Virus record (IMG/VR): IMGVR_UViG_3300045988_052780
Length of the DNA stretch: 64,000 nucleotides
Reading direction: 5' to 3' (one strand)
Source of the DNA: a virus
Under the pieces are notes generated by a model that saw only the letters and a program-made list of their open reading frames with translations, was not told the origin of the DNA and ran no database searches. Below, piece after piece: positions 1 through 38,137 of this stretch; positions within the stretch are counted from its first letter, which is position 1, and the number at the start of each line of letters is the position of its first letter. The position numbers and the translations under genes were made by a program.

Positions 1-495
1 TCTGTAAGTAGGATTGTCATTAACTGGAATTCCTAAGAACTCAGCAGCTTCGATAACTCCATTAACACCTACAGTTAAATACTGTTTCTTCATATGAATG
101 AATCCAGCAGAATAGACAGTTAGTAAACCATCATTTAAATAGTCTTTGAGTAATTCATTATATGCAGTTTGATATTTATGAACTTTCTGAACGTTTTCAC
201 GTAAATACTCAATCATATCGTATCCGTTATTAACTGCATCTTGAACTAATCTATTAATATTTAAAGTCATTACAGATTTGCTACCAGTAGCAATACCACC
301 AGCTCCAAGAGAATAACTAAATTGATTATCAGTTACTTCATTGCGAAGTCTACAACAACTTGACAGACTATCTGCTGAATCAGACATATAAGTAAAGAAT
401 GAGTGTCCCTTACTATACATCTCTGCTGTAAAGTCTGCCCATTCTTTATCTACTACATCCTCTCCATCAGTAAGAAGTGCTACAGTTTCGACCAT
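1..495 (-). CDS. nrdD: anaerobic ribonucleoside-triphosphate reductase NrdD, C-terminal part (start ATG at 495; 5'-truncated by window edge)
   Basis: Minus-strand translation from 495 reads MVETVALLTDGEDVVDKEW...CCRLRNE...SYSLGAGG, typical of the class III RNR C-terminal region. Its ATG lies 4 nt after the stop of the HNH ORF. Confidence 0.55.
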   Translation of the reverse strand, partial: MVETVALLTDGEDVVDKEWADFTAEMYSKGHSFFTYMSDSADSLSSCCRLRNEVTDNQFSYSLGAGGIATGSKSVMTLNINRLVQDAVNNGYDMIEYLRENVQKVHKYQTAYNELLKDYLNDGLLTVYSAGFIHMKKQYLTVGVNGVIEAAEFLGIPVNDNPTYR

Positions 496-499
496 TCTG

Positions 500-1246
500 T
501 TACACCTCACCCTCGGTAGGTGAGTGATTTATTAAGTATTCGTATTTCTTGTTCTCACTACTAACTATCTTGCCATAGATTTCTATTTCGTGTAATAGTC
601 TATTCTTGATAGCCTCTTCTTCCGTGTCATACCATTCGATTAAGGATTCTCCATCCTTCTTTATATAGCATCTCCAGCATTTACCATCTCGTCTATTAGA
701 GTGATAACTAACACCTACTACTTTACCGTAGTGTCTGTTAACTACATTTATTGCTTGAGATACTACTCTAAGATTCTCCATTCTATTGTCTAGTCTAATT
801 CCATTAATATGGTCCACTACAGTCTTAGCATCGTAACCCTCTGTTTCAGTCAGAATCTTATGAATTAGCCGCGTCTTACCATCAGTTTTAGTTACTGCGT
901 AACCTTCACTATTAATATAAATCTTAAACTGTTGTAAGAACTCTTTCTTATCTAAATCGAATATTACTTCACCAGTGATTTCACCATGTACTCCTCTACA
1001 TACACAGACATTATCTCTCCACTCATTAGCATCCTTCTGGGTGAATTGAGATATCTCTCCATGTCTATACATTTGTAAATAGTGCTTTCTACAATAATAC
1101 TGTCCATCTCCCTTAAACTTACTTACTCTACCAGTGCCATTACCGACACTAGCTCCACATATACAGCAAATTCTTTCGTTAGTCTCCATATTTATAAAGT
1201 TGTTACTTGTTTCACTTAATGAGACAAAGATACAACTTATTCCCAA
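500..1246 (-). CDS. HNH homing endonuclease (HNH_3 motif DHINGIRLDNRMENLR plus AP2-like DNA-binding domain) inserted inside nrdD
   Basis: ORF track 248 aa with the DHINGxxxDNRxxNLR HNH motif and a C-terminal AP2-like YHSNRRDGKCWRCYIKKDGE...EEEAIKNR segment. It sits between the two nrdD halves. Confidence 0.8.
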   Translation of the reverse strand: MGISCIFVSLSETSNNFINMETNERICCICGASVGNGTGRVSKFKGDGQYYCRKHYLQMYRHGEISQFTQKDANEWRDNVCVCRGVHGEITGEVIFDLDKKEFLQQFKIYINSEGYAVTKTDGKTRLIHKILTETEGYDAKTVVDHINGIRLDNRMENLRVVSQAINVVNRHYGKVVGVSYHSNRRDGKCWRCYIKKDGESLIEWYDTEEEAIKNRLLHEIEIYGKIVSSENKKYEYLINHSPTEGEV

Positions 1247-1390
1247 TAGAAACTAACTTTAATGGACATACTTAATAAACGGGAGAATACTTCAATTCTC
1301 CTCTATATGTTACCATATAGTTCCGACTATCGCATACCTTAATACATTATATTCACACATAACGTATTAAAGTCCTCTATATTTAGTCTG

Positions 1391-2518
1391 TCAGGCTGCA
1401 CACTTAACGTTGCTTGCCCCCTGTTGTCCTAATATTAGGAGTTCCAAGTCAATTAATAGAGGTTTTAATTCCCCATCGAAATTCCAAGGGAATGTAAGAA
1501 TACACTTAGTGCGTTCATTATTAAACCAAGTCATAAACTTCTTCTGTAACCAGTTCAAAGAATCCCATATGGGCTTAGTTCCATCTGGGAATACAAACTC
1601 ACCAAATAAACCTTCAAAGTAATTCTTATCAAAATAACTGATATTCCAGAATACTGATTGGAAGTTACGAGCAGCTGCTGGTTGATTGATTGAATATACA
1701 ATCTGTTGGAACTTCTGTTCAATAGTCTTATCAATATTTCTATGTTTATCAACCATCTCTTCTGGACGTTTCCAATAATCATCACCCCATTCTTTACGAG
1801 CGAAGTAATCGAAATACATTAGGAACTCACCAGTAGCTACTGCTCCAGCGAATTGTGAGCTGATAGCAAATACCAGATTAACAAACATACCGCAGAAGGA
1901 GTCCAGATTCTTAGGCTTGGCAGACAAACCTCCAATTGGCTGTAGCCCTTCAAGTAGGAACGGATACATAGTGATAGCCACGCAGTAGGGCATAATTGAT
2001 GTTTCATCATGCTTGTAAAGTTCATGAGATTCCAGTTGTCTAATATACTCCTTAGCTAAATCTTCACCATATAACTGCCTAATTTTATCTGTAAGGATTG
2101 CTCTATTAACTTTAATTACATCACCCTTAAACAACTCTCCATTTAAAGTTACTATATTCTTCTCAGTAACATTGGCATTAGCATCATATTTACTACCTGT
2201 AGCAGCATTAGATGCTTTGGCATAATCTTTAATAAACTGCTTCTTCCCAGCTAATGCTCTGAGTTCAGCTTGTTTATGTCGATACAAAATGAATGCTTTA
2301 GCGACATCATAGTAATCACAAGCCATCAAAGCCTTTTCAATTTGATCTTGAAGCTCTTCTACTGATACTATGTTGTTAATATACAATTCATCTTTAATAT
2401 CATCCAAAATATCGGAATCAATTGGTTCGTTAACAGCATTGAACGCCTTAGTAATAGCCGCGTCAATCTTATTAATATCGAAAGGTTCTACTCTCTTATT
2501 TCTTTTAATTACTAACAT
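1391..2518 (-). CDS. nrdD: anaerobic ribonucleoside-triphosphate reductase NrdD, N-terminal part (ATP-cone plus start of catalytic domain)
   Basis: N-terminal ATP-cone (MLVIKRNKRVEPFDINKIDAAITKAF...) followed by class III RNR-like sequence. The ORF ends 144 nt before the HNH start. Confidence 0.7.
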   Translation of the reverse strand: MLVIKRNKRVEPFDINKIDAAITKAFNAVNEPIDSDILDDIKDELYINNIVSVEELQDQIEKALMACDYYDVAKAFILYRHKQAELRALAGKKQFIKDYAKASNAATGSKYDANANVTEKNIVTLNGELFKGDVIKVNRAILTDKIRQLYGEDLAKEYIRQLESHELYKHDETSIMPYCVAITMYPFLLEGLQPIGGLSAKPKNLDSFCGMFVNLVFAISSQFAGAVATGEFLMYFDYFARKEWGDDYWKRPEEMVDKHRNIDKTIEQKFQQIVYSINQPAAARNFQSVFWNISYFDKNYFEGLFGEFVFPDGTKPIWDSLNWLQKKFMTWFNNERTKCILTFPWNFDGELKPLLIDLELLILGQQGASNVKCAA

Positions 2519-2523
2519 TCAAT

Positions 2524-3303
2524 TTAGAAGTTTAATATGTTTCTTAGTAATAGAGTCTTCTCTGCTCTATTCATCAAATCTTTGCCCTTGTCATTACTAA
2601 TTAACTGAGTAAATGCATTATACACAGTAAACATATCCACCTCATTACCCTCTCCTATATAATAGCTAGAATCAGGGTCTTCAAACATAGAACCATAAGC
2701 CTTAACAACAAGGTCTGTTCCTATCTTTACGTCTCCATACCCACCATTATAGGTCATAGATATAGCGTTTCTAACCCATCTACCTAGATTAGAGTCTATA
2801 TTACTTGGAGTTCCTTCCCATGTAGTATTATGTAAGGTGTCCAACATCAATTTAATATCACTGGTTTGTGATAAAAGGTGTTCAACAGCTTTATAATTGA
2901 TGGGCTTCTCAGACTCTAAGTTCTGAACTTGCAAGAACTCTGGGTCAAAGACACATAAGTTTGTACATGCTCTATTAAGAGCGCCTCTATAAATCTTAGC
3001 TACTGGTTTACGGACATCTAATCCATATACCATACCAATAACTTCATCGTGATTATCTATTCTGCAATTCTCTGGCATTACAGCTTGAATAAGTACACGA
3101 TTATAAGTGATATCATCTGCATTAACCTCTCCATCTGCTGTTCTAGTAACTTGCTTAGGAAGTTCTGCTTCCACTATAAAGTTACTAGTAAACTTATACA
3201 TTCTTTCTAGAAAGGGTTCTACATAAGCAGCCGTAGGGAAGTAATTACGCTTCCCTATTCTGGTTGCTTTACCATTTAACAGTTGATCAATCGTCAGTTG
3301 CAT
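2524..3303 (-). CDS. hypothetical protein
   Basis: 259-aa ORF, tightly packed, with phage-like codon usage. Confidence 0.45.
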   Translation of the reverse strand: MQLTIDQLLNGKATRIGKRNYFPTAAYVEPFLERMYKFTSNFIVEAELPKQVTRTADGEVNADDITYNRVLIQAVMPENCRIDNHDEVIGMVYGLDVRKPVAKIYRGALNRACTNLCVFDPEFLQVQNLESEKPINYKAVEHLLSQTSDIKLMLDTLHNTTWEGTPSNIDSNLGRWVRNAISMTYNGGYGDVKIGTDLVVKAYGSMFEDPDSSYYIGEGNEVDMFTVYNAFTQLISNDKGKDLMNRAEKTLLLRNILNF

Positions 3304-3956
3304 TATACACAGTACAATATCGGCTTTGGTAATTCTAGTAATCTAGCAGCATAATATACAGCTCTTAATGGATTCGCATTGTTGCCATCAAAAGGCATAG
3401 TATTATAATTAAAATAACCAACGCCACATTTCTTAGCAATTGTATATAGTCTTACTAACAACTTAGTAGATTGCTTTTCTATTGGCTCGATATCCTTTAA
3501 CAAAAGCTGATTTATCAAATACTTTAGGGCTTCCGTGCAAGTAGCTCTGGTATCACCACCGCTAAATGTATGATTGTCTATCATAATTGCTCGCACAGTA
3601 ACTCCACAAAATGCATCCTCAGCATACTTTACTTCACCACTCATCATTTCAATAGGAGTTCCCACCAATCCCTGTACAGGATGGACAGGTTTCTCTACAT
3701 CTCTGTCATTAATGGTTATCTTACTAGAATCTAGTTGCTTTGAGGCTTTAGAAATCATACTATCTTTAACAATAGTAGGAAAATCATCTATGTTAGTTTG
3801 GCCAGTTACTCTAAATCCAACAGCTGGCAAATTACTCATAAGATTATCCTCGGCTCGTTGAAAGTCTAGTTTACTTTGTTCTAACGCCTTAAAAGCATTT
3901 ACATAGTCATCACAATTAGCTCTAAGAGCTATTACATCATCAATAGTTAAAGTCAT
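3303..3956 (-). CDS. hypothetical protein
   Basis: 217-aa ORF. Its start/stop overlaps the downstream gene by 1 nt. Confidence 0.45.
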   Translation of the reverse strand: MTLTIDDVIALRANCDDYVNAFKALEQSKLDFQRAEDNLMSNLPAVGFRVTGQTNIDDFPTIVKDSMISKASKQLDSSKITINDRDVEKPVHPVQGLVGTPIEMMSGEVKYAEDAFCGVTVRAIMIDNHTFSGGDTRATCTEALKYLINQLLLKDIEPIEKQSTKLLVRLYTIAKKCGVGYFNYNTMPFDGNNANPLRAVYYAARLLELPKPILYCV

Positions 3957-3964
3957 TGTTTACA

Positions 3965-5527
3965 TTATTGTAAGATAATTCGTCCATCTAACGTGTTCTT
4001 ACCATCTACAATACTATAATCACAGGATGCAAGAGTATTACCGAAGTTCTTGTGTATCCACTCAGAACTTCCAAATAATGAGCCTACAGACTTATAAGTA
4101 AATCTTCTACCATAGGTAGTAGCGGACTGATGCAAGTCTCCTTTTACAAAGACTACATTACCGGAGATTCCCCTATTATCTAGATACTCATTAATAAAAT
4201 TCTCAGTCTTTACATCTAAGGTTAGCGGTAAATTCTTGAACATATCCTTGTTATCTTTACCATGACACATTACATAAGTAACGTCACCAAGTTTGAACTC
4301 TCCGATAAATTTATCAAATACTTGACACTTAATATCGAACTGTTCAAGTATAGCAGCCAATGCTATATTAGCAGCATATCCAAAATCACCGTCATGGTTG
4401 GATTCCCCAACGCAGTAATAATATAAATTGGAATGCTTAATCTCTTCCTGTATAGACTTAATAAAACTAGTCATTAGTTTTATATAAGTATGCAGTTGTT
4501 CCTTATTGCTCATATTTTGAGCTAGGTCATGTCCACCTCTAGTAGTCTGGCCATTATATCCATCTAGAGAGTCTCCAAGATTACAGATAACAATATTCTC
4601 AAATCCTCCACCTATATGATAGGCTTCTGTATATACTCTTTTAAGAATCATATCAAATCTTCTCTTCATCTCTTCCTCATTATAAGGATTTTGATAAATA
4701 GATTGTGGAGATACAGCTGCTCCAGTATGAATATCAGATAGCCAAATGATTAAGTCTTTACCATTGGTTATCATAGGTGCTTTGCCCCAATCATACAAAT
4801 TATTAATGTCTAAACCTTCTAGAATATGTTTACCATCTTCAATCTTAGACTTTAATTCTGCATTCTCTAATGCATATTTCTTTAATAAGGATTCATTCTG
4901 TTTTATCCTTTGAGTTTCTATGCCTCTAAGAAAGTCATTCTCCTTCTCTCTTAGTTGCATAACTTGAAGCTGTTCAGGAGTATTCTCCTCTATGATATGA
5001 GGAGCAAATGGAGCTGAAGCCTTAGTAATATTAAACACTCTCAGAATCTTCTTGAAATCTTCCAATGAATATTCTGGGAAGCTACGGCTAACTTCTCTTT
5101 GCGTGATAGAAGAGCCATAATATGAATACAATCTATAAATCATATTCATTTCATCACGTGTAAGTCTTCCGGCTAAAGGAGCTTTATCACGCAAAGGCAC
5201 AGTAAATTCATAGGCAATAATCCTACCTTCTGTGTCTCTTATATACTGAATGGTTCCAGTACTAGTCTTTTCAGAGGTATTCTTGGCTTTGGATTTAGTA
5301 GTTCCAACATAACCTCGTTCTTTAATCTGTTTAAACAAATCCATGACAGTAGAATACTGTTCATTAGATACTTTGTTAGCCTCATAGTCAAACTCCAGTT
5401 GCTTACGCTTATTGCAGAAATAATTCTGAGGAAGACCTGTCTTCTCAGCATAAGCATTCATACTGACGTTATCTTTAATTACGTTATGTAAGTGACTGAT
5501 CAATTTGACTAGAGTTTCGTTTCTCAT
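3965..5527 (-). CDS. calcineurin-like metallophosphoesterase (Mre11/SbcD-like nuclease or phosphatase) with an N-terminal helical, possibly DNA-binding region
   Basis: Metallophosphatase motifs are present: LSDIHTG (motif I), NLGDSLDG (II), GESNHDG (III) and CHGKD (GNH-type). Confidence 0.6.
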   Translation of the reverse strand: MRNETLVKLISHLHNVIKDNVSMNAYAEKTGLPQNYFCNKRKQLEFDYEANKVSNEQYSTVMDLFKQIKERGYVGTTKSKAKNTSEKTSTGTIQYIRDTEGRIIAYEFTVPLRDKAPLAGRLTRDEMNMIYRLYSYYGSSITQREVSRSFPEYSLEDFKKILRVFNITKASAPFAPHIIEENTPEQLQVMQLREKENDFLRGIETQRIKQNESLLKKYALENAELKSKIEDGKHILEGLDINNLYDWGKAPMITNGKDLIIWLSDIHTGAAVSPQSIYQNPYNEEEMKRRFDMILKRVYTEAYHIGGGFENIVICNLGDSLDGYNGQTTRGGHDLAQNMSNKEQLHTYIKLMTSFIKSIQEEIKHSNLYYYCVGESNHDGDFGYAANIALAAILEQFDIKCQVFDKFIGEFKLGDVTYVMCHGKDNKDMFKNLPLTLDVKTENFINEYLDNRGISGNVVFVKGDLHQSATTYGRRFTYKSVGSLFGSSEWIHKNFGNTLASCDYSIVDGKNTLDGRIILQ

Positions 5528-22663: not shown

Positions 22664-22737
22664 TGACTTGAGTGGGACTCTAACCCACAACCTGCTCCTT
22701 AGGACGGAGATGCTCTATACTATTGAGCTATCAAGCC
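22664..22737 (-). tRNA. tRNA-Arg(CCT)
   Basis: Manual cloverleaf: acceptor GGCTTGA/TCAAGTC, D-arm GCTC..GAGC, anticodon loop GTCCTAA, T-stem GTGGG/CCCAC. Confidence 0.65.
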
Positions 22738-22744
22738 TTGACGG

Positions 22745-23212
22745 TTACATACTAATAGATCCGGTATGTTTACCTCTTACTTTAACAGAGTTAGCAGTAA
22801 TATCTCCCTCTACATCACCACCTACTTCGATGCTGTTAGCTTCTATACTACCTCCTACATTACCTTTAACTTTGACACTATTACCATGTACAGTAAGAGC
22901 GTTTCCATCAATGTCACATGTATTACAGTTAAGCTCCTTTACATTACCAGTAAAACTGATATGTACACTATCATTATTGACTTCAGATATTAATTTACCA
23001 TTCACATAAATTCTATTCTTTATTTGTGACAGGGTAATATCATCTTCATCAATATCAAACGATTCATTGTCAATAAACAGTTTATTCATGATTCTTCTTA
23101 TCCAGTTCATAGTACTTAATAAGTTTATCAAATGCTTTAACTCTAGCATTATGTCCTTCCTCACTATCAGGGGTCCACCAATAAGCTTTACCATACCTGT
23201 CTTTAGGAGCAT
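22745..23212 (-). CDS. beta-helix repeat protein (bactofilin-like or hexapeptide-like repeats)
   Basis: The C-terminal half carries repeated G(N/D)V.G.I/V units (GNVKELNCNTCDIDGNALTVHGNSVKVKGNVGGSIEANSIEVGGDVEGDITANSVKVRG). Confidence 0.35.
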   Translation of the reverse strand: MLLKTGMVKLIGGPLIVRKDIMLELKHLINLLSTMNWIRRIMNKLFIDNESFDIDEDDITLSQIKNRIYVNGKLISEVNNDSVHISFTGNVKELNCNTCDIDGNALTVHGNSVKVKGNVGGSIEANSIEVGGDVEGDITANSVKVRGKHTGSISM

Positions 23213-23390
23213 CTAGAAACTTCCTGTTAAATTCTGGAATCATGGTAATTATATCACGTTGGCTATAAATAGTGATTCCACGTTCGGTTCCTGCCATAGC
23301 GTGTTCTATACAGAAACACATTCCCCAGTATTCAGGGTGGGTTACAAATAATTCTTTAGCTTTTTTAAGAACACTTACAACATCTGTCAT
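23082..23390 (-). CDS. hypothetical protein
   Basis: 102-aa ORF. Confidence 0.35.
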   Translation of the reverse strand: MTDVVSVLKKAKELFVTHPEYWGMCFCIEHAMAGTERGITIYSQRDIITMIPEFNRKFLDAPKDRYGKAYWWTPDSEEGHNARVKAFDKLIKYYELDKKNHE

Positions 23391-23564
23391 TTCACTTTAG
23401 ATTTAGTTAGTTGGCCAATCATTTGATTTCTAAAGCCCTCAACTTGATGGGGACATATATTAGTAATCCATTCTTTAAAATATCTATGATATTTAGTGTG
23501 ATTACTTTTATAGAACTCTCTTTCCAACCAGTTATACAATTCTCTTTCCATATTTATTAAATTA

Positions 23565-23637
23565 GTAGTCTTATTCAGAATCGAACTGAAACCTCCATAT
23601 CCGTAGTATGGTATTCTATCCGTTAAACTATAAGACT
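23565..23637 (-). tRNA. tRNA-Arg(ACG)
   Basis: Acceptor AGTCTTA/TAAGACT, anticodon stem CCATA/TATGG with loop CTACGGA, T-loop TTCGATT. The D-arm is irregular. Confidence 0.6.
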
Positions 23638-24133
23638 AAAGAATAGAGGGTGTGCTGTTACGCCAAATGCTCTGACTGAGTTTCACTCTTATCTCGTTTA
23701 CCTTCCTCCGTCTATATAGGCAGTTTCAACATGAGTATTCTAAACGACATTATTACATTCTTGATTCGAGGCTATCAGTAAGGATGCTGCCTAATTATAC
23801 TTCAATAGAAACCTACTCGCAACTCTTTAAATGATGGCCGCTTTTAAGCCTACATCCCCTCTATTATAATTATTCTATACCATAGTACATTAAGTACAAT
23901 ACTTGCTGCCTTAAACCGTATCTACGTGTAACAACATTGGCATTAAACCTTCCAGTTATGGCTACATTAATGCTTCTCTTCAATTTGTCGGCAGTAAATG
24001 ATTTACCAGTAGTACCAATTAATCCATTAGGTTCATCAGCGCAAATAAAATCTACAGCTTCAAATAACTGTTCTTTGGTCTCTGCACTATTTACCTTTTG
24101 CCACTTCTCTAATTCTCTCTCAGAATTCATAAC

Positions 24134-24508
24134 TTAAGACAATGCTTCAAGCTCTTTAGCCAATTCTTCATAAGATTTACTCTCAAGCTCTGCATCCTGT
24201 TTCTTAGCCATGAGATCAAGAATCTTTTGACGCTTAGCTTTCTTCTCAGCAGCTACAATGCGTTCTTCCTGTTCCTGTAACTTAACGTCAATAATGTGTT
24301 TTACAATATTGAATTTCAGTTCAAGTTCAGTGGCGTCTTTAGTACGAGTCTTAATGAAACTTTCGGTTTGTGATTCCTTTAGCCTCTTATTAAGATTAAT
24401 AGCAATAGGATCAAGTTGTTCCAGAGATAAATCCCACAAATCTTCAACAGATAATACTCCACGATTAGTGGAATAACGTAATTTTACCCTTGATGCTTTC
24501 TCAAACAT
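24134..24508 (-). CDS. hypothetical coiled-coil protein
   Basis: 124 aa, heptad-rich. Confidence 0.4.
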   Translation of the reverse strand: MFEKASRVKLRYSTNRGVLSVEDLWDLSLEQLDPIAINLNKRLKESQTESFIKTRTKDATELELKFNIVKHIIDVKLQEQEERIVAAEKKAKRQKILDLMAKKQDAELESKSYEELAKELEALS

Positions 24509-24519
24509 AACATTTTCAT

Positions 24520-26532
24520 TTAAAAGTTAACTTTAATGGTTCTTGTAAAGCTGCCAGTAACTTTACAGATAACACTATTGCGGATGGTAGATGAGAATCC
24601 TAAACCACTCAACTGATTATCAGAATAAGGAGCCTTCATCTTATTAGCTAACATCTCAAATGTCTTACGATCCTGAGATAGTTCACTCCTAAGATATTCG
24701 TTAAAGAATCCTCTTACTGGAGATGGATTCTTGCACCCATCTAAGATAAAGAAATAGTGTTTATTGCCTACTTCTGCACCGTTCCAATAATTTGGAGACA
24801 GAGTGAGTAACGATACCTTATGGAATTTGTTAGTAGACAAGTGCCACGTCTCTTTATCACTTGAATTACTCGGAAGGACATCATGTATGACAATTCCCTT
24901 GGCCTTAGAATACTCAAATCTGGCTACTGTCACTTTATCACGACCTCGAAGATCTGTTGTGTAGGTATACTCACGTACTTCTCCGTTACATTCAATTTCA
25001 ACAGTAAATCCAACATCGTGATAATCTCTTTTGCAGAAATTGTGTACATATACGGTATACATACCTTCCATACGTGGTTCATCCTCCCAGATAACGTTCT
25101 CTACTGGTTTACGAGAATGTATACCACCAGCATTCATGTCAACATCTAGCACCCCACCAGAAGCTCCAGTTCTATGTGAATAATAGATTTCATTATCACG
25201 TGGTTGTATGATATGGATGTCTAAATCATCACCATTATACCATGCAAGAGAACACCTTAGATATCCATTCACCTTACCTCCAGCAGCCTGCACCTTATCC
25301 TTAATAGAAGAATCTGCAAGGTCTCCATTGTATGTCCAAGCGAAATTGTTTGGCCATTTAAATAGATTCTTTGCATCTTTATTAGATGGAGCTGTTAGAG
25401 TCATAAGGTTGTTTATATGTCTACTTTCTAATAGAACTTCTATACTGGTAGCATTGGGAACAACATCCTTAATAAAGTCCTCAATTGATATTTCAGCAAC
25501 AGTACCTAATTTCTTAGGATTAACTGGAATATCTTCCGCTAAATCTTGGAATACACTATTCCCAAGCATTGACTTCTTAGCATTTCTATCAGCAAAGATT
25601 ACATCATTAACTGTAATGTCAGTAATTTCTGCATGTCGCCTTGGAAGTGCATCCATTAGCCCTAGTTCAATAACCCTAGCTTCAGCAGCTTGAATCATCT
25701 TCTTAGTAGCTATTGTCTTAGGTCTTTGATAATTAGCAGGAGCTACTATTCTCTCGTAAGCTCTTACACTTTCATCAAGTTCACGTCCATTGGAGATGTC
25801 TACAAGCAAAGTGCCTATAGCAGTATTCCTAATACGTCCTACATATCCAACTTTAGCAGATTCAACCCAGCAGAAATTATCACGTTCCTCGCGGGGTACT
25901 ACTTCATATTTCTTCTTAAGTGCAACAAATGCCTCTAGATCGGATTTGTACTGGTCTCCACGATACAAAGAACCTTGTGAAATCAAATCCAGAACAATGT
26001 CAAAAGCATCCATGGATAACTCATCCAAAGCCCGCTTCAATACTGTTTTATTGGTACGAAGTGCTCCTCTTACTGCTTCTTCAGAATCAGATACTGCACA
26101 AAGTAAATGATTAGGAAGCTTGTAAAATAAATGATTCCATGTATGTACGTGTCTCGTAGGAGTTTCTATCCACACATTGTTCTTATCTGTACCCAGTTTA
26201 ACCACCTTACTAACAAATACGTCACATACTGGTTTAGATTTAACAAGTTGGGCTAAGTTTCTGGCTACTGTAGCATAAGGTTCATCTAACACTAAGGAAT
26301 CCCAAATACTTACTAACTTGTTATTAACTATTGCAACTACATTGCCATAAGGTTTGATAAATTGACGACAGCAATTACATGTATGTGATTGTCTCTCGTC
26401 TTCTGGATAAGAATCTATGTAACAATCCCACAGCTCATCCTTATTAACATTAGTTAAATACAATCTATCAGCATTATTAGCTAAGGCATCAAATTGCTTA
26501 TAAACTGCTCGTTTAAAATCAATAAATTCCAC
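24520..26532 (-). CDS. large hypothetical protein (670 aa)
   Basis: Long uninterrupted ORF with no motif I can assign. Confidence 0.5.
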   Translation of the reverse strand: MEFIDFKRAVYKQFDALANNADRLYLTNVNKDELWDCYIDSYPEDERQSHTCNCCRQFIKPYGNVVAIVNNKLVSIWDSLVLDEPYATVARNLAQLVKSKPVCDVFVSKVVKLGTDKNNVWIETPTRHVHTWNHLFYKLPNHLLCAVSDSEEAVRGALRTNKTVLKRALDELSMDAFDIVLDLISQGSLYRGDQYKSDLEAFVALKKKYEVVPREERDNFCWVESAKVGYVGRIRNTAIGTLLVDISNGRELDESVRAYERIVAPANYQRPKTIATKKMIQAAEARVIELGLMDALPRRHAEITDITVNDVIFADRNAKKSMLGNSVFQDLAEDIPVNPKKLGTVAEISIEDFIKDVVPNATSIEVLLESRHINNLMTLTAPSNKDAKNLFKWPNNFAWTYNGDLADSSIKDKVQAAGGKVNGYLRCSLAWYNGDDLDIHIIQPRDNEIYYSHRTGASGGVLDVDMNAGGIHSRKPVENVIWEDEPRMEGMYTVYVHNFCKRDYHDVGFTVEIECNGEVREYTYTTDLRGRDKVTVARFEYSKAKGIVIHDVLPSNSSDKETWHLSTNKFHKVSLLTLSPNYWNGAEVGNKHYFFILDGCKNPSPVRGFFNEYLRSELSQDRKTFEMLANKMKAPYSDNQLSGLGFSSTIRNSVICKVTGSFTRTIKVNF

Positions 26533-26544
26533 GATAATTAAATT

Positions 26545-27366
26545 TTATAAAGGTTTTACATTATCAAAGATAGCATCACTGGCTTCTTCTCCCCATTTAG
26601 AATAGATAACAACACCTATTGGGGTCACTTGGAATACAAATGGATCAATACTTCGCGGCATTACTCTTATCTCAGTTTCAGTAAAAGATACCAGTTGTTG
26701 CATATCGTCTACTGGTGCAGCTATAAATAAGTCTGTAGATTTACAGGCAGTATGAGACATAGTTACTCCCTCAGTTCTTCCATTCCAATACTTGGCAAAT
26801 GGATACGCTAGAAGTTCTTTCTTGTGGTATTGTAAGAATATTAGACCTTCGGGAACAGGCTCTTCACGATAAAAGTTATAGTGAGAGTATGGATTTGAAG
26901 TACTACTCCTTCTGACATTGACTTTTACGTTAGTAATAAGAGCATTATCACGATTAGAGTATTTATTATCCGTTAACGAGTCTAGTGTAGTCTTAGTAGC
27001 CAAGATTTCATTTAGATTATCTTCTGGTATATCACCTTTATAATACGATAGTGGCCCGGATACCAATCCATACTTAACATTCAGATTAATAAAATCTTCC
27101 TCTTTGAGTATAATGCATCCAGGGAAGTTCTGCGAGAAGAAGTTATAGCATTTAAAAGTCTCTAAGTTATTCATATACTTCTCAGCATCTGTAATAACTG
27201 AAGAGTGATCAAATCCTAGTAACTTAGCTTTCTCAGCTTTCTCAATTGCAACATGATTCATCTCTAAGCTTCTGGTTTGTTGCAACCAGTTTAAGCTAGC
27301 TAATATATAAGCTTGATGAATCTCTAGAGCTCCTATTTGGGGTCTAGTACCAATTTGTGTGTCCAT
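26545..27366 (-). CDS. hypothetical protein, paralog of 31694..32497
   Basis: Shares blocks with the 31694..32497 protein (KYGLVSGPLSYYKGDIPEDNLNEI vs KYNLACGPISTYKGVIPEENIEAI, C-terminal W..EA.D.IFD). Confidence 0.5.
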   Translation of the reverse strand: MDTQIGTRPQIGALEIHQAYILASLNWLQQTRSLEMNHVAIEKAEKAKLLGFDHSSVITDAEKYMNNLETFKCYNFFSQNFPGCIILKEEDFINLNVKYGLVSGPLSYYKGDIPEDNLNEILATKTTLDSLTDNKYSNRDNALITNVKVNVRRSSTSNPYSHYNFYREEPVPEGLIFLQYHKKELLAYPFAKYWNGRTEGVTMSHTACKSTDLFIAAPVDDMQQLVSFTETEIRVMPRSIDPFVFQVTPIGVVIYSKWGEEASDAIFDNVKPL

Positions 27367-27456
27367 AATCTTTATGCTTTCTTTTTAATAGAACCTGGTC
27401 TTGTAGTAGCCCTTTTGAATGTATCAGACTGCTTATCCCACCATGCTTGACGGTCT

Positions 27457-27918
27457 CTAAGACGTTGTTGTTTCTTCTTGTATTTCATACATATTTAAGT
27501 TTAATTCATTGCTAGCATTATAAGCAAGCTTATCAGCTTTCTCATTATACTCAGAACCATTATGTCCTTTGACCCATCTCACGTCTATAAGCTTATGACG
27601 TTCAATAGCCCTATCAAGTCTAGCCCATAAGTCAGTATTAGCTTTCCTTTTCCAGTTCTTAGTAAGAGTACCTACTATATACATGGAATCAGTAACTATA
27701 ATGACTTCTGAGCTAGTTTTAATGGATTCTAATGCGACTATAACTGCCATTAGTTCCATTCTTTGATTAGTACTATTTACATACATTTTACTGTAGGAGA
27801 ATACTTCCTTTCCATCTTCCACGATAACGAATCCTATTCCACCTTGATTTCTAGCAGGAGAGTATGCTCCATCAGTAAATATTGTATACTTATGCATCAG
27901 CTGTAGGATCTTCAACAA
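27457..27918 (-). CDS. rnhA: ribonuclease HI
   Basis: Canonical RNase H motifs are present: TDGA, GGIGFVI, NQRMELMAVIVALE, TDSMYIV, KGHNG...NEKADKLA. Confidence 0.85.
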   Translation of the reverse strand: MLKILQLMHKYTIFTDGAYSPARNQGGIGFVIVEDGKEVFSYSKMYVNSTNQRMELMAVIVALESIKTSSEVIIVTDSMYIVGTLTKNWKRKANTDLWARLDRAIERHKLIDVRWVKGHNGSEYNEKADKLAYNASNELNLNMYEIQEETTTS

Positions 27919-28468
27919 AATCTTCGTCGGAATCTGTTTCAGCTTCTGTTGCTTTGTGAAGTAAATGTAATGTCCACATTCCTAATACGAATGCAACATA
28001 CAGTTCATCCTCAGGCTCTTCATATGTAAGCTGATCTAATACAGCATTACATACTTCCATCAATGAGAAATCATCCTTAGACATTTCTTCATCAGATATC
28101 TTAGTCATATCATTTACATAAGGTCTAACTTTCTGTATAGCCATATCAAATGACTTAGATAGTCGCAAACCCTTATCACCAGCATCTATAGCTGCATGAA
28201 GAGGTTCTTGTAACTCATCTCTAAGATATCCTAATGCAAAGGCTCTAGTTATGTCTCCTTTAGCTAAATCTAAGAAAGACTCAGCATTAAGAAACTCGTC
28301 TAATTCAAATTCGATGTCTTTAATGTCTATTAATTTACCCATTTGATTATTGAAGTAAACTTCCAATCTTATCGGCCATGGAAGTTGCTTTATTAGAGAC
28401 TTCGCTAAGATTAGCTGTCTCAGTTTGTAATAAAATAATCTCTTGTTCCTTAGCTGCTTTCTCATCAT
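27890..28468 (-). CDS. hypothetical protein
   Basis: 192-aa ORF. Confidence 0.4.
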   Translation of the reverse strand: MMRKQLRNKRLFYYKLRQLILAKSLIKQLPWPIRLEVYFNNQMGKLIDIKDIEFELDEFLNAESFLDLAKGDITRAFALGYLRDELQEPLHAAIDAGDKGLRLSKSFDMAIQKVRPYVNDMTKISDEEMSKDDFSLMEVCNAVLDQLTYEEPEDELYVAFVLGMWTLHLLHKATEAETDSDEDFVEDPTADA

Positions 28469-28621
28469 CTGCTCTTTTAGCTACATCACGTAACTTATTA
28501 ACAGTAGACTGAAATGCATCAATAATCTTGGAAGATTCTTCTGCCAGAGAAGAACTAGTAATCTTATTTACTTTCTTACCTATTATCATAAGAGTTATTT
28601 AGTTACAAGACTTAAGGGATG

Positions 28622-28692
28622 TCGCCATCAGAGGATTCGAACCCCTGCCACTACGCGTACTGTGGACCCGATCAAAACGATTGTTAATGGCG
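28622..28692 (-). ncRNA. tRNA-like element (perfect acceptor stem and T-arm, non-cloverleaf body); possible pseudo-tRNA or Y-RNA-like tRNA mimic
   Basis: Minus strand reads CGCCATT...AGGGG-TTCGAAT-CCTCT-GATGGCG-A. The 7-bp acceptor and canonical T-arm fold, but the 39 nt between them do not form D and anticodon arms; they contain an ACGCGT palindrome. Confidence 0.4.
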
Positions 28693-29165
28693 TTGGAGCA
28701 GTGATTAAGACTTATGTCCCTAAAGAGGTATGCTGCAACCACCCCACTCCTTGTACTTCGGAGCACATCTTATTCCATATGCTAGACTCTGCTTTAGTCT
28801 TCATCGCCAGAGTTAATTATAATCCAGTCTCTAGCCTGGTTTCATTTTCACTTGCTTAAACTTACCACACTTAGTGCATACCAAAAGGTATACATGGGAA
28901 TAAGGAATTTCTTCATCATTCATGTATACATTCATGTGCTTTAATTCCTTCCAATTATGCCGACACGTTAGTTTCAGTATCCAATTCTTTAATAGCTCTT
29001 TCATATTACAATATTTTAGTCACTTTGCCAAACACGGATTTAGTCCATCCATTAATCTTACCATGATTGTTGCCTATAAGGACTCCTCTATCTCCCTTAG
29101 CTTTGACTAAGTGAGTATAGTATCTACCTTTGACTTTACAAAAGACAATATCTCCCACTTCTACT

Positions 29166-29663
29166 TTATCTAGGGTTACTGGACTTAAGACATGCTTTTG
29201 TCCCGATTTGATTAGAGGAGTCATGGAATTTCCCTTCTCTGAAGTTACGAAGGAGTTTCCTTCTGCCAACATCTTTACCTTGTATAGCATTAGCCATTAA
29301 TTGCATTTCGTAAATAAAGTTTAATCTCTGTTCCATTCTAGAACCGTTAGTTATTCTCTCAAACATAGATAAATGTCCTCCATTGCCACATAAACAATAT
29401 TCCATTAAAGTGTCATATCGTTGTTTCTTAGCCTCTAGCTCGGCTTCTGGAATGGGATATCTCTTAAGTTCAAGACCTCTATATAAATCAACAAGTTCGC
29501 CCAATGTAGATGACAGTTTTAATAATGCCATTACATTGGGCGCACGATGCCTTTCACATTTATTGACGTATTCCTCTAAAGCTAAATCCCAGTCACCGAA
29601 TACATATTTGACTTGTGACAATTCAATTTCAGTAACCTTTCTTAGAAATTCATAAATCTTCAT
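29166..29663 (-). CDS. hypothetical protein
   Basis: 165-aa ORF. Confidence 0.4.
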   Translation of the reverse strand: MKIYEFLRKVTEIELSQVKYVFGDWDLALEEYVNKCERHRAPNVMALLKLSSTLGELVDLYRGLELKRYPIPEAELEAKKQRYDTLMEYCLCGNGGHLSMFERITNGSRMEQRLNFIYEMQLMANAIQGKDVGRRKLLRNFREGKFHDSSNQIGTKACLKSSNPR

Positions 29664-29826
29664 TATTAACTGCTTTAGACGTTACTACCTTATTTTCAGT
29701 CCTTTCTTTAGTCTTGATAGCAGACTTACAAGCCTTCTTTCTCATTACTAACGGACAATCACAATACCCTGCTGGATTATACCAACAACAATAATCACAC
29801 TGATGCATACAACATAATTTTAATTG

Positions 29827-29912
29827 TAGCCAGAACGGGAGTCGAACCCGCACGAGCACTTCTGCCCACCAGATTTTAAGTCTGACGCGTCTACCAGTTC
29901 CGCCATCTGGCC
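29827..29912 (-). tRNA. tRNA-Leu(TAA), type II
   Basis: GGCCAGA TG GCGG AACTGGTAGA CGCG..., anticodon stem TCAGA/TCTGG with loop CTTAAAA, long variable arm, T-loop TTCGACT. Confidence 0.8.
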
Positions 29913-30404
29913 ATCCTTGTTACACAATACATGCAAGAAGAAGTAACATTATTGTAGTTACCATTGATATGGAGAACATTACTTTAATGAATTTATCATT
30001 GGCATTCCATATCATTGCTAGAACTGCACTTCCTAGGGACATTGCAGCTAAAGTTACCAATACACATCTTAAAACCATCATATTTCACACTGCTCTTCAT
30101 TTAATCTATCAATCCAGTTGATTAATAGACGATACAACCATTTCATTTCCTTAATACTTTCTTTGCATATTCACCATAGGAACCATGTCTCTTCATAAAC
30201 GGAGTTAGAAACCTATAATCGAATTTATAATCACATACATCATAATCGTTCACAATCTCCCTACTAGAAGAAATCTCATAGTCTAGGATATCTTTAAGTG
30301 TTAGAATATCTCTAGTCTGTTGCCTTTGGTGTCTCTTAACCCTTCGGTTATACCAATTGCGTTTAACTTTAGGTCCTTTAACAATAGGAATTTTACGTCT
30401 ACTT

Positions 30405-30806
30405 CTAGTCATTTAATACATAATCACAATAAGTATCAACAAAATCTTTGGCTTCTTTCAAACCACATTTGGTAGACTCCTTTACATGCTTAACTGCTTG
30501 TAGTTTGGTACCCCTCTGCACAAGCTGCTTCATCTTAAAAAAGTCTTCACATGACAAATCAATTGTATTATTCCAACGCTTCTCGTATGCAAGCATTGCA
30601 TCATTATACTCTTGAGGATGTTCTGTCCAAGTGATTTGCTGGTCCAGGATAACTGTACAAGTTCCATCAAGTATATCATACTCTCTGGAATCTACAGTAA
30701 ATTTGCCAGCTTCTAGCACCACTGTGTCTGTAGGGAATGGAATCATCTCTGATGAGATTGATACTTCCTCTATTGTCTTATCGTCTTTTACAAACTTTAC
30801 GTACAT
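30405..30806 (-). CDS. hypothetical protein
   Basis: 133-aa ORF. Confidence 0.4.
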   Translation of the reverse strand: MYVKFVKDDKTIEEVSISSEMIPFPTDTVVLEAGKFTVDSREYDILDGTCTVILDQQITWTEHPQEYNDAMLAYEKRWNNTIDLSCEDFFKMKQLVQRGTKLQAVKHVKESTKCGLKEAKDFVDTYCDYVLND

Positions 30807-30831
30807 AATCTTTAAGTATTAATTAGTAATG

Positions 30832-31573
30832 TGGCGAGAAGGTGACTCGAACACCCAACCTTGCGATTATTTCTTTGGACGTGTGCTCTTAGCATTTAAT
30901 CGTCCGTAATTCTCAGTTAAGCTGTGACAATTTGGACACAGTAACTGTAGATTGTCTTCTGAGTTGTTGGTAGCATCACCATCTATGTGGTGAACATGAA
31001 GTGGAGGTTCTCCTGTAATCGGGTGAATCTTATCCCACCCACAAACTTGGCACTTACGTTCATGCTTATCCATGAGATAGTCCCTAATGTGTTTAGAAAT
31101 GGAACGAGTTCCACACATGCCAGTTTCTTCACCTTCCTTCCATCTTCTAATGTACTCTTTATGTTTGTACTCGGCTTGACATACGTTGTTACAGTACTTA
31201 GTAGTACTGTTATGATTGCTTAATTCTTTACCGCAATTTAAACAGACTCTAGTTACTAACTTCTTGCCCTTGTTAAAGGTTTCGTTAGCATTTATACTTC
31301 TTCGTTTAACTATGCTGATGTTAAGTCTCTTAGCAACCCTTCGTATGTTTGAGCCTGTACAGCCGTACATTCTACCAATCTCCTCATAAGACACTTTGTC
31401 TGTTAATATTAACCTTTCTAAGTTCTCTTTCTCTAAATTCCAGTCCATTTGTATAACTCTTAATTGAATTACAAATGTAATGATTTTAGATAAAGAAACC
31501 TAGGAATTCGATTCTTATTAAGAATTATTAACAGTATGAGTCGCACGCTCTAACCAGTTGAGCTATCTCGCCA
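30832..31573 (-). tRNA. tRNA-Met(CAT) split in the anticodon loop by a 667-nt intervening sequence carrying an HNH endonuclease gene (exon 1 31536..31573, exon 2 30832..30868)
   Basis: 5' half GGCGAGA TA GCTC AACTGGTTA GAGC G TGCGA CTCAT... and 3' half ...AA TCGCA AGGTT GGGTG TTCGAGT CACCT TCTCGCC A. Acceptor (7/7), anticodon stem (5/5) and T-stem pair perfectly once the halves are joined. Confidence 0.6.
30867..31448 (-). CDS. HNH homing endonuclease with N-terminal sigma-70 region-4-like HTH, inside the tRNA-Met intervening sequence
   Basis: HNH motifs CQVCGW...HVHHIDGD...NLQLLCPNCH. Paralog of 44439..45047. Its stop codon TAA abuts the exon-2 anticodon stem. Confidence 0.8.
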   Translation of the reverse strand: MDWNLEKENLERLILTDKVSYEEIGRMYGCTGSNIRRVAKRLNISIVKRRSINANETFNKGKKLVTRVCLNCGKELSNHNSTTKYCNNVCQAEYKHKEYIRRWKEGEETGMCGTRSISKHIRDYLMDKHERKCQVCGWDKIHPITGEPPLHVHHIDGDATNNSEDNLQLLCPNCHSLTENYGRLNAKSTRPKK

Positions 31574-31693
31574 TTAATAAGAACATAAAGCTCGTCGTGT
31601 TTACATCGTCACCAATGTAACCTTAATACCTCCCGTTTGCTTCACTGCCGGCTAGTCTGGCTTTGTCTCCTTATGTTCTTATGGATTTATAAG

Positions 31694-32497
31694 TTAACGA
31701 TATTTATCGAATATGCTATCTGTAGCTTCAGTATCCCACATAGTAGCAATAATTGCTCCTATTTCATTTGCCTTAAAGACAATTGGATCCTCAAGCTGAC
31801 GTTTTCTAGCCTCTTCTTTACCTGAATACATTCTGATAGTTATATTATCTGTCATAGTATCATAGGGAGCTGCTATACACCAGTCACTGTCATTTAAGGT
31901 AAGTGGACTGAAGCTTACACTGTCCTCAACTTCTGGGTGTCCTATAGCACGCATATATTGCCATCCAGAAGAGATATCGTCCACTACAAACGGGAATCTT
32001 GAGAAGTATTCAACGATTTCATTTACTATACTCTTTGGCATATCGGAATCTATATCTATTCTAGGAACCCATTGCATGTTATTAATATTCCTTATTTTAC
32101 GCAATTCCTCTCCGGCCTTTACAATAGCTTCAATGTTCTCTTCAGGGATAACTCCCTTATAAGTTGAAATGGGACCACAAGCTAAGTTGTACTTCTTCAA
32201 TACTTTAAAGAAATCATCATAAGGAACTATCATACAAGAGGGACTAACTTTCTTGATTCTGTCAATAAGAGAGGCAATTTCATCTCTAGATTTACTAGAA
32301 CCTTTAGCAGTTAATAGAGTACGAAGTACTTCAGCATTCTTAGTTCTACCTAATCCATTAGCTTCCAGCTTAGCAATCTGAGCTTTAATATCTTCTGTCT
32401 TATCGACATTCTGCCCTTCCAAGTATTTCTTACAATACTCCATAGAAGCAACTACTAGGGCATTACGTAGAGCTTCTGCATTCAAATTATTTACCAT
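31694..32497 (-). CDS. hypothetical protein, paralog of 26545..27366
   Basis: See 26545..27366. Confidence 0.5.
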   Translation of the reverse strand: MVNNLNAEALRNALVVASMEYCKKYLEGQNVDKTEDIKAQIAKLEANGLGRTKNAEVLRTLLTAKGSSKSRDEIASLIDRIKKVSPSCMIVPYDDFFKVLKKYNLACGPISTYKGVIPEENIEAIVKAGEELRKIRNINNMQWVPRIDIDSDMPKSIVNEIVEYFSRFPFVVDDISSGWQYMRAIGHPEVEDSVSFSPLTLNDSDWCIAAPYDTMTDNITIRMYSGKEEARKRQLEDPIVFKANEIGAIIATMWDTEATDSIFDKYR

Positions 32498-32960
32498 TGT
32501 TATGACTTATTATACTAGTTATATAACGCACACTATACACTATGAACGAACAGCCACTACTTCCAGTTACTAAGAGTAAGAGTACACATATAAGCTGATT
32601 GTGCCAAGGTCCGTACTCGGTTCTAGATATATTAAAATAGAATGTATTCTTAACACCATTAATAATAGCCCTATTCCAGGTTGGAGTGTCTACGGCTAGC
32701 TTAAATGTGTTATTAAACCCTTCAGCTTGTAATACAAGTTTATTTACCTTCTTAGTAGTAGAATTACCATCTTGTGTAATAGTTTCATCCTCTACTATTC
32801 TGTCTATGACTTTGCATTTAACTCTGTGGTCAACATTCATATCATGCCAGAACTGAGTAGTATATACTTTAATACATAAACATAGTATTAACAAAGCTAC
32901 TATTGCAATCCTTCCTGAAACCTTTTCAATTTCAGGTCTTAAGTCAATTATTGTTGGCAT
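32487..32960 (-). CDS. membrane protein
   Basis: N-terminal TM (IAIVALLILCLCI) and C-terminal hydrophobic stretch. Confidence 0.4.
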   Translation of the reverse strand: MPTIIDLRPEIEKVSGRIAIVALLILCLCIKVYTTQFWHDMNVDHRVKCKVIDRIVEDETITQDGNSTTKKVNKLVLQAEGFNNTFKLAVDTPTWNRAIINGVKNTFYFNISRTEYGPWHNQLICVLLLLVTGSSGCSFIVYSVRYITSIISHNNGK

Positions 32961-33142
32961 CTTTTACACTTAATAATTGCGTTGCTGTATTCAGTCCTAA
33001 TTCATATGCTTCAGCAATCAATACCACTGCATCGGCTAATGTAAGCTTGTTATTATTTGCTTCAGCAAACTCACCTGCTTCTTCAAAGATTTCTTTCAAA
33101 TTATCTGCCATAATTAAATAAGTTTTAAAGTTACTACTCTAG

Positions 33143-33223
33143 TAGGGTAGGAGAGACTCGAACTCTCACACCCGAAGGCATCAGTGCCTAAAACTGACGT
33201 GTCTACCATTCCACCACTACCCC
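33143..33223 (-). tRNA. tRNA-Leu(TAG), type II
   Basis: GGGGTAG TG GTGGAATGGTAGACAC, anticodon stem TCAGT/ACTGA with loop TTTAGGC, long variable arm, T-stem GAGAG/CTCTC. Confidence 0.75.
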
Positions 33224-33440
33224 ATTACCGTTTTAATAATTTAATGAACTCATCTTCATTCCCCTTGTAGTATTGCTGAAGATATGCTATATATACAGCT
33301 TCATTCTTAACTATTTGAGGGAATTTATTCTCAAACTCAATTACTCTCTCTTCTCCAACTACGCTAACATGAAAGCCTCTAGCATCATTACTAGGACTGC
33401 ATAGCAACATAAATAAAATAACTATTAGATACTTCATTAT

Positions 33441-33471
33441 AAATAAAAGAAAGAGGAGTGTTGCCACTCCC
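33441..33471 (-). terminator. rho-independent terminator (minus strand) downstream of the AAA+ ATPase gene
   Basis: Minus strand has GGGAGTG-GCAA-CACTCC followed by TCTTTCTTTTATTTAT. Confidence 0.5.
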
Positions 33472-33497
33472 TTTCTAGTTTTAACCCAAAGTCAGTG

Positions 33498-34937: not shown

Positions 34938-35227
34938 TACTTGTTAGGTTTATTAATCTTATTTACTTCCTTAATAATTGCCTCGCAATTCTCTCTGGTT
35001 GTAGTTAAACAACCTAATTGAATAATTGAACCATCTTGAGTGATGGTAAGATTCTTATCATCAATTGTGGTTCTACATTCACTTCCCCTAATAATACTTT
35101 TAATCAATGGGTAGGGTAATGCAGTATTCTTACAGAATATTACATTCTTGCCTTCCACATAAATGACATCGTAGCCGTCAATGCTACCTACTACCTTCCT
35201 CATAAAAGATTCTTATCATCAATTGTG

Positions 35228-35301
35228 TGGGCCCAGCCAGACTTGAACTGACAACCTCAACATTACGAGTGTTTTGCTCTAACCAATTGAGCTATGAGCC
35301 C
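35228..35301 (-). tRNA. tRNA-Thr(CGT)
   Basis: GGGCTCA TA GCTC AATTGGTTA GAGC, anticodon loop CTCGTAA (one A:G mismatch at 27:43), T-loop TTCAAGT. Confidence 0.7.
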
Positions 35302-35383
35302 TTAATTCTTTAAGACTAACACAATTAATAGTAAGGTCTTATTAATAACAAACTCATTAACATATTAAAATCATAATTAGTAG

Positions 35384-35454
35384 TTGGACCACCAGGATTC
35401 GAACCTGGACAAACAGAACCAAAACCTGTTGTGCTGCCGTTACACCATAGTCCA
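35384..35454 (-). tRNA. tRNA-Gln(TTG)
   Basis: U1:A72 acceptor TGGACTA/TGGTCCA, anticodon stem ACAGG/TCTGT with loop TTTTGGT, T-arm CCAGG TTCGAAT CCTGG. Confidence 0.7.
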
Positions 35455-35469
35455 ATTACTAAGGGAATA

Positions 35470-36516: not shown

Positions 36517-36520
36517 GATT

Positions 36521-37441: not shown

Positions 37442-37443
37442 GA

Positions 37444-37824: not shown

Positions 37825-37906
37825 TTACATTTCACTTTAACATGTTAACTTCATAAGCATCTCTGTGTGTTAAAAATAATCTAACAATAGCCTAAGACTA
37901 TCATCG

Positions 37907-37979
37907 AGCCTCCTACCGGAATCGAACCGATAACCTATCGCTTACAAGACGATTGCTCTGCCAGTTGAGCTAAGGAGGC
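37907..37979 (-). tRNA. tRNA-Thr(TGT)
   Basis: GCCTCCT TA GCTC AACTGGCA GAGC A ATCGT CTTGTAA GCGAT, T-arm ATCGG TTCGATT CCGGT. Confidence 0.8.
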
Positions 37980-38114: not shown

Positions 38115-38137
38115 ATAGAGCTAGCTTACCTACACTT

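Follow-up and report, generated by a model that had tools for sequence, protein, structure and literature searches.

Mobile group I introns carrying homing-endonuclease genes are well known in the nucleotide-metabolism genes of phages, and the insert considered here interrupts one such gene, nrdD, in a 64,000-nucleotide (nt) stretch of viral DNA (IMG/VR virus record IMGVR_UViG_3300045988_052780), the whole of which is called the window below. Phage ribonucleotide reductase genes, nrdD foremost, are the genes most often split by introns (PMC3653736), and the intron of T4 nrdD (sunY), the same host gene as here, is mobile by homing (PMC1865063, PMC2988022). In Aeromonas phage Aeh1 a ribonucleotide reductase gene is interrupted by a gene for an HNH-family endonuclease to give the consecutive open reading frames (ORFs) nrdA-a, mobE and nrdA-b (PMC3653736). 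Of 104 genomes of the Jug jumbo phages of the gut, 95 have nrdD in fragments, and intron junctions of split Jug genes are spanned by RNA reads, the published examples being terL and nrdD (PMC12880540). In the window a row of three ORFs lies on the minus strand, NrdD N-terminal, HNH and NrdD C-terminal, all at the coordinates first reported for them. Judged from its sequence, the 994-nt insert that separates the two parts of nrdD is very probably a mobile group I intron with an HNH gene inside it, and since an interruption of this kind implies splicing rather than the making of two proteins, nrdD is almost certainly mended at the level of RNA.

2518..1391, minus strand: NrdD N-terminal ORF, 375 amino acids (aa), covering the Pfam ATP-cone and the beginning of the NRDD domain
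1246..500, minus strand: HNH ORF as called mechanically, 248 aa from TTG
500..1189, minus strand: HNH homing endonuclease gene, 229 aa from the most likely start, ATG 1189; it lies after helix P9.1 of the putative intron
From ATG 495 to beyond the window start, minus strand: NrdD C-terminal frame, matching NRDD profile positions 223-375 (Pfam)

How close is the likeness to T4, a parallel that the initial annotation had already drawn? In layout it is good: in both introns the core comes first, at the 5' end (235 nt in T4, about 205 nt here), followed by an endonuclease ORF that runs almost to the 3' splice site and by a 3' tail of very few nt, 21 in T4 and 7 here, so that in both the 3' splice site is remote from the core, and both appear to be mobile by homing. 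Beyond layout the parallel fails. The T4 intron sits at about position 143 of the Pfam NRDD profile and that of the window at about 206, which puts the T4 site about 60 profile positions upstream; the T4 endonuclease is, by annotation, the GIY-YIG enzyme I-TevII whereas that of the window is of the HNH_3 type; the T4 NrdD protein is very divergent from that of the window; no nucleotide similarity was found, T4-like phages being absent from the blastn matches to the window core. Identity with the T4 nrdD intron or the I-TevII lineage was rejected, as site and endonuclease family both differ. With respect to Aeh1 the difference is of another kind, for there no ribozyme is present and the two polypeptides assemble, whereas in the window the limits of the insert are exactly those of a complete group I intron.

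The exactness can be judged from MT835470.1, a 117-kilobase (kb) scaffold from human faeces which, at 84% identity, is the sole close match among deposited phage genomes. Its NrdD is uninterrupted, 688 aa long, and reads …KCILTFPVETMALL… across the site, where the DNA runs …ACATTCCCT GTTGAAACT… (…ILTFPVETM…; in contiguous form …ACATTCCCTGTTGAAACT…). In the window, 994 nt stand between …ACATTCCCT and GTCGAAACT…, the exons being as in MT835470.1. Only a single placement of the insert, 1486..493, between CCT and GTC (…ILTFP/VETV…, Pro344/Val345), restores the intact sequence, and no NrdD residue is then missing or duplicated at the break. Such an exact insertion relative to intact homologues argues that the arrangement is not due to chance. 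The initial annotation had reasoned that protein halves contiguous without loss, together with lack of an intron fold, would favour a split gene; aligned to the intact 688-aa NrdD the halves are indeed contiguous without loss, and the intron fold is nonetheless there.

493..1486, minus strand: probable group I intron, 994 nt, from UGGAAUUUCGAU… to …GUAACAGAAUG, an exact insertion with a unique junction and a match to Rfam RF00028
1487..2518, minus strand: nrdD exon 1, 344 codons, ATP-cone and start of NRDD, last codons ATT CTT ACA TTC CCT; colinear with the intact MT835470.1 NrdD as far as …ILTFP
1..492, minus strand: nrdD exon 2, VETVALL…CCRLRNE…NDNPTYR, leaving the window at its start; colinear with the intact homologue

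Because the placement is unique, NrdD homology in the first ORF ends at residue 344 (…ILTFP, window 1487), and the last 31 codons (WNFDGEL…KCAA and stop) are intron read in frame as far as a UGA in J6/7. The 375-aa N-terminal part first described, ending at 1391, is therefore correct as an ORF and in its domains, but the reductase proper stops short of its end. The C-terminal frame reads VETVALL…CCRLRNE…SLGAGG. For annotation, the three ORFs become one spliced nrdD (join 2518..1487, 492..<1) and an intron-encoded HNH gene, where automatic gene callers would otherwise report two truncated reductases.

The ends so placed are those that a group I ribozyme would be expected to use, and the helices between them are as follows.

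1469..1492, minus strand: P1, exon UUCCCU (1492..1487) with guide GGGGAA (1474..1469, intron bases 13-18), 6 base pairs, read from the sequence
1282..1462, minus strand: ribozyme core P3-P9.1, helices in canonical order
1462..1456 / 1380..1374, minus strand: P3, CCUCUAU/AUAGAGG
1448..1445 / 1423..1420, minus strand: P4, CUUG/CAGG
1440..1427, minus strand: P5 hairpin
1419..1416 / 1396..1393, minus strand: P6, GGGC/GCCU
1412..1399, minus strand: P6a hairpin
1390..1385 / 1328..1324, minus strand: P7, C(A)GACU/AGUCG, with bulged A and the G-C pair of the G-binding site
1373..1336, minus strand: P8, long
1320..1303, minus strand: P9, GUAA loop
1301..1282, minus strand: P9.1
506..524, minus strand: 3'-terminal hairpin CUCACCU-ACCGA-GGGUGAG, within the last HNH codons
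493..503, minus strand: conserved 3' terminus GUAACAGAAUG, with terminal guanosine G493 and ATG 495..493 inside it
486..492, minus strand: P10, GUCGAAA (first 7 nt of exon 2) with UUUCGAU (1481..1475), 7 uninterrupted pairs including one G·U, as seen in the sequence

In P1 the last base of exon 1, U1487, is opposite G1474 as a U·G wobble, and at the other end the intron finishes …GAAUG, the terminal G being G493. The P1 loop contains the P10 guide, UUUCGAU (1481..1475), and as this adjoins the P1 guide both helices are provided by one contiguous guide sequence, UUUCGAU-GGGGAA. Relatives with the exon-2 variant GUUGAGA maintain P10 through wobbles. There is no P2: an A-rich J1/3 leads from P1 directly to P3, just as in two related introns (L064 and L172) and in a second nrdD intron of the nearest relative of the window, L007 (IMGVR_UViG_3300013900_000002, 99% identical to the window). 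P7 is flanked by J7/3 AAAU and J8/7 …GCGAU, and the fold z-score of the 311-nt 5' segment is -4.66. It had been suggested that the ORF-free stretch 1247..1390 could hold the 5' part of a ribozyme; ribozyme there is, but it extends over 1486..1282, overlapping the tail of the first ORF, and is not confined to that stretch.

The initial annotation had also proposed a scan with Infernal group I models, and when 331 nt were searched the full-length model of RF00028 (Intron_gpI) matched window 1303..1506 with 44.9 bits (E 1.7e-10). Comparative evidence goes further. A pattern of conserved segments, TTGACTTGGAAC…GACAACA, matched more than 120 viral contigs in IMG/VR, which clearly belong together as a single family of phage group I introns, and pairs were counted in MAFFT alignments anchored on the invariant segments. 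In the first of these (A1, 60 non-identical family members, not fitted to any structure) 98.3% of cells in P3, P4, P5, P6, P7 and P8 are paired, against 35-52% in slid controls, with 18 of 29 pairs changing on both sides and a covariation score reached in none of 500 shuffles. In the second (A3, members with a short P9) the figures for P9 and P9.1 are 97.1% against 36-58%, 12 of 14 pairs, and again 0 of 500 shuffles. The double-sided changes in A1 comprise all seven P3 pairs, three of the four in P6, all five in P8, and the closing pair of P7, which is A-U in 52 sequences and C-G in eight, the window included. Within the clade of the window itself (L012-L014) there are compensatory differences in P3, P5, P9 and P9.1. 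Every helix that varies has covariation support. Family covariation also rules out CAAG (1416..1413) as the 3' strand of P4, GGGC/GCCU being P6 and P4 being CUUG/CARG; the outer P4 pairs of the Rfam alignment (G19-C66 in A1 columns) fared no better, being unpaired in the 12 sequences that have G at column 66.

The far end of the intron repays similar attention, since it is there that the C-terminal part of NrdD had been said to restart with its own ATG 4 nt past the endonuclease stop. The position is right: between the HNH stop TAA (502..500) and ATG (495..493) are only the four bases CAGA. The end as a whole is …CUCACCU-ACCGA-GGGUGAG-GU-GUAACAGAAUG/GUCGAA, and family members with no ORF mostly end in the same manner, with a small hairpin that leads to GUAACA, some further nt and a last G (as in …GGUCACAAAAGUAACAGAAUG); the expression GTAA[CG][AC] matched 37 of 45 tails, a few of these matches lying not at the terminus but in a loop upstream of it. 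The HNH stop UAA (502..500) falls within the GUAACA element. An equivalent hairpin stands directly before GUAACA in the second L007 intron and in ORF-less members, and in L012-L014 two pairs of the hairpin are changed on both sides (U-A to C-G and A-U to G-C) and one has become a wobble, compensation which, in a segment that also codes for HNH protein, points to the hairpin being kept as RNA structure. As for the ATG, it is, by comparison of sequences, the last three bases of the conserved 3' end of the family, and is more simply explained in this way than as a start codon; the sister intron, the second one in L007, has AGG at its 3' end.

In the mechanism that we propose, one pre-mRNA would cover the whole nrdD gene, the core P3-P9.1 would fold in the first ~205 nt of the intron, and the guide UUUCGAU-GGGGAA would form P1 with the last bases of exon 1 and P10 with the first of exon 2. 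External guanosine would attack after U1487 and the exon-1 3'-OH would then attack after G493, with the 3' hairpin and GUAACAGAAUG drawing the distant 3' splice site up to the core. The predicted junction is ACAUUCCCU-GUCGAAACU, with …ACAUUCCCU joined to GUCGAAACUGUAG…, and the joined exons would encode …ILTFP-VETV… in a normal NrdD of ~688 aa. In mixed infection the endonuclease would cut intron-less nrdD near ACATTCCCT/GTNGAAACT, and repair would copy the intron in (homing). We infer catalysis, splicing in vivo and the cleavage specificity of the endonuclease from the features described.

Several points weigh against this interpretation. Splicing is a prediction from the sequence. The RF00028 score is below the gathering cut-off of 50, and an Rfam scan by E-value of 1..2600 and one at gathering thresholds of the whole window yielded no group I match, the loss in the 2.6-kb search included, although, with the match obtained only in the 331-nt search, these negatives are attributable to filters and thresholds. 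Neither P9.0 nor a partner of the conserved GUAACA was identified in the intron. P4 has only 4 base pairs and is nearly invariant (only U-A/U·G varies), which is consistent with pairing, but its covariation neither supports nor refutes it. Last, an in-frame ATG before exon 2, just past the HNH stop, would in principle permit separate translation of the C-terminal part.

This ATG bears on an intron-less split gene of the Aeh1 type, the other option offered by the initial annotation, in which nrdD would have been divided by the HNH gene into halves translated separately, the second from ATG 495, to assemble afterwards. We consider it very improbable. Three ORFs in succession are what it predicts, and an ATG one codon before the first exon-2 residue and so near the HNH stop would allow termination-reinitiation; however, exactly at the break stands a group I core that is complete and has both P1 and P10, and the ATG belongs to a conserved 3' end which ORF-less members also possess with no coding need and which in the second L007 intron has AGG. 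The 31-residue tail of the first ORF is translated ribozyme, the second L007 intron giving a like peptide (…LIDLE…QQGAS…AA and stop) from the same RNA motifs. There is also no Shine-Dalgarno-like sequence before ATG 495, a weak argument in phages of Bacteroidota. A compromise, in which ribosomes on unspliced RNA reinitiate at the in-frame AUG after the HNH stop to yield C-terminal NrdD which, with the 375-aa N-terminal product, would form a backup two-piece enzyme, is conceivable but most unlikely, and so is a wider version in which translation of the HNH ORF through the 3' hairpin would gate use of the 3' splice site.

A shade less probable again than the split gene is a decayed intron, with a ribozyme that no longer splices and an inactive nrdD. 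That activity is only predicted, that the RF00028 score is under the gathering threshold, and that the HNH ORF of L014 has a 1-nt deletion, so that parts of such introns do decay, would all fit. But among contigs with up to 19% divergence in their exons the ribozyme keeps 91.5-100% identity, such differences as exist are compensatory (P3, P5, P9, P9.1 and the 3' hairpin), and both exons keep open frames. Moreover, relative to MT835470.1 the exons have 83% nucleotide identity and the protein 91% over 223 aa (exon 2 and the end of exon 1), a sign that NrdD is under purifying selection and an argument against a dead gene; with compensatory changes in the one and conservation in the other, decay is unlikely. 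An intein or other insertion at the protein level, though inteins are frequent in ribonucleotide reductase genes, those of phages included (PMC3653736; PMC12880540), is excluded by the reading frames, for the insert is out of frame with its host gene, has a stop at 1391, ~200 nt outside any frame before ATG 1189 and a separate HNH frame, and it has no Pfam match to a Hint or intein domain. What speaks for a spliced group I intron, the first of the options in the initial annotation, is the combination of exact insertion, the P1 U·G, P10, the terminal G, the covarying core and RF00028 at E 1.7e-10.

The gene within the intron had been described as a 248-aa HNH/AP2 endonuclease at 500..1246. The HNH assignment stands, residues 121-149 (…VVDHINGIRLDNRMENLRV…) matching Pfam HNH_3 at 37 bits (cut-off 24.8) and the protein PHROG 99 'HNH endonuclease' at E 8e-27; AP2 does not, for at E<=0.05 Pfam gives no support for such a domain and the protein is AP2-like by eye only. 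The start is most likely ATG 1189 (229 aa) rather than TTG 1246. Relatives of the protein with 91-99% aa identity occur in nine other contigs, and the gene occupies the place of the small P9.2 hairpin of ORF-less relatives. Elsewhere in the window neither an HNH paralogue nor a further member of the intron family was found.

Evidence that the intron moves comes from its distribution among the best 80 nrdD loci in IMG/VR. The site is empty in 59 of them; eight have the intron of the window in a version of 994 or 1006 nt (nine loci when first found by HNH match), three have another insert, of 856-858 nt, and the remainder are divergent or unresolved. The empty allele reads ACATTCCCTGTNGAAACT, or ACATTCCCTGTNGAAACTGTAGC in L196 and MT835470.1, and in L196 this empty site goes with 100% protein identity over a 223-aa query spanning the junction. 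Similarity of intron and exons is discordant: L006 has exons 83-84% identical to those of the window but a ribozyme and an ORF that are both 99% identical, while in L013 the exons are 97-98% identical, the ribozyme 91.5% and the ORF 86%. Such discord, together with the many empty sites, indicates that the intron is mobile; sporadic presence and an independent history are as expected of a homing intron. Matches of a 17-mer, CAGACTAAATATAGAGG, in L018 and L019 proved on inspection to have no intron context and were put down to chance.

The 856-858-nt insert is another group I intron (L249 2144..2999, also in L257, L259 and, at 3168..3987, in Lak-B1, L002), with a NUMOD4-like/HNH ORF upstream of its core and a site 2 nt downstream of that in the window (CCTGT/G as against CCT/GTC). 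It is carried by nrdD alleles whose exons are 96-100% identical to those of the window. To have two unrelated introns, or none, at almost one site in one phage lineage suggests intron competition, and near-identical nrdD alleles with this intron, with another 2 nt away or with neither are a natural system for its study. In L007 nrdD is interrupted a second time, at 3780..4745, by an intron of the ribozyme family to which that of the window belongs, ~590 nt into exon 2 (…FNTEFVP/AENLGV…), with its own 243-aa HNH gene, no P2, a 3' hairpin and the end GUAACAGAAGG. The corresponding region maps ~100 nt beyond window position 1, and the nrdD of the window very probably has an intron of this type just outside.

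The family defined by UUGACUUGGAAC…GACAACA, though large and widespread, is one that we could not match to any named family. The window intron shares with it the invariant J3/4-P4-P5 and J5/4, and likewise P6, P7, J8/7, P9 with its GNRA loop, P9.1 and the 3' end GUAACA(N)nG. Most members, however, have P2, A-U as closing pair of P7, and no ORF or one in the P6a loop, whereas the window intron has no P2, a C-G pair and its ORF after P9.1. Its nearest distinct ribozyme relatives, L064 (3511..4612) and L172 (40..800), are like it in the C-G closing P7 and the lack of P2, but lie in a capsid-like gene and carry a LAGLIDADG ORF antisense to the intron. L087, L093, L100, L160, L166 and L187 are examples with the ORF in the P6a loop (AGGGGCAAG-AUnAUG…ORF…CAGCCUGAACGACUAA) and not after P9.1. 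With ORFs in the P6a loop or after P9.1, the family has evidently gained endonuclease genes at several positions. Among annotated phage genomes the only ones with nucleotide similarity to the core by blastn are of the Staphylococcus Twort/Kayvirus type, whose introns, one of them annotated as Intron_gpI, are 81-89% identical over 43-59 nt (J8/7-P7-P9-P9.1); the likeness goes no further than the 3' half of the core, and both the hosts and the interrupted genes are different from those of the window.

Jug phages and Lak megaphages, of Bacteroidota in the gut, have nrdD in several pieces through group I introns and HNH genes, as in the window. The window phage is nevertheless probably not a Jug phage given the difference in guanine-plus-cytosine content, 35-37% in the window against 27-30% in Jug phages (PMC12880540). 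A 230-aa nrdD fragment in L007 that matches a Jug figure legend had suggested Jug identity, which is unsupported as the content differs. In Lak-B1 and L249 the intron, 2 nt from the site in the window, has an ORF that precedes the core, and its nucleotide sequence shows no similarity to that of the window intron. Further nrdD inserts are present in L002 (Lak-B1), L003 (Lak-C1), L004 (Lak-A1) and L005 (MT835492.1, a faecal phage), the sites in Lak and MT835492.1 being after residue ~287-292, close to where the T4 intron lies, and at the SSCC/RLRNE active-site motif or a little beyond it (aligned residues 391-413). The window adds one more target site, and a ribozyme family of wide occurrence, to the mobile introns of ribonucleotide reductase genes; as a clean, well-supported and unsurprising example, useful for annotation, it leaves the present view of group I introns as it was.

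Three ORFs upstream of nrdD (259, 217 and 520 aa; window 2524..5527, minus strand) have no Pfam match at E<=0.05. Elsewhere in the window the minus strand carries all 23 tRNA genes found by Rfam, scattered along ~30 kb (22664..52200), an unusually large set for a phage with related contigs of ~100-190 kb, and two further structured RNAs.

62445..62518, minus strand: RAGATH-1 hammerhead ribozyme, 82.6 bits (gathering 56.3)
54284..54381, minus strand: RAGATH-34 RNA, 86.9 bits (gathering 60.7)

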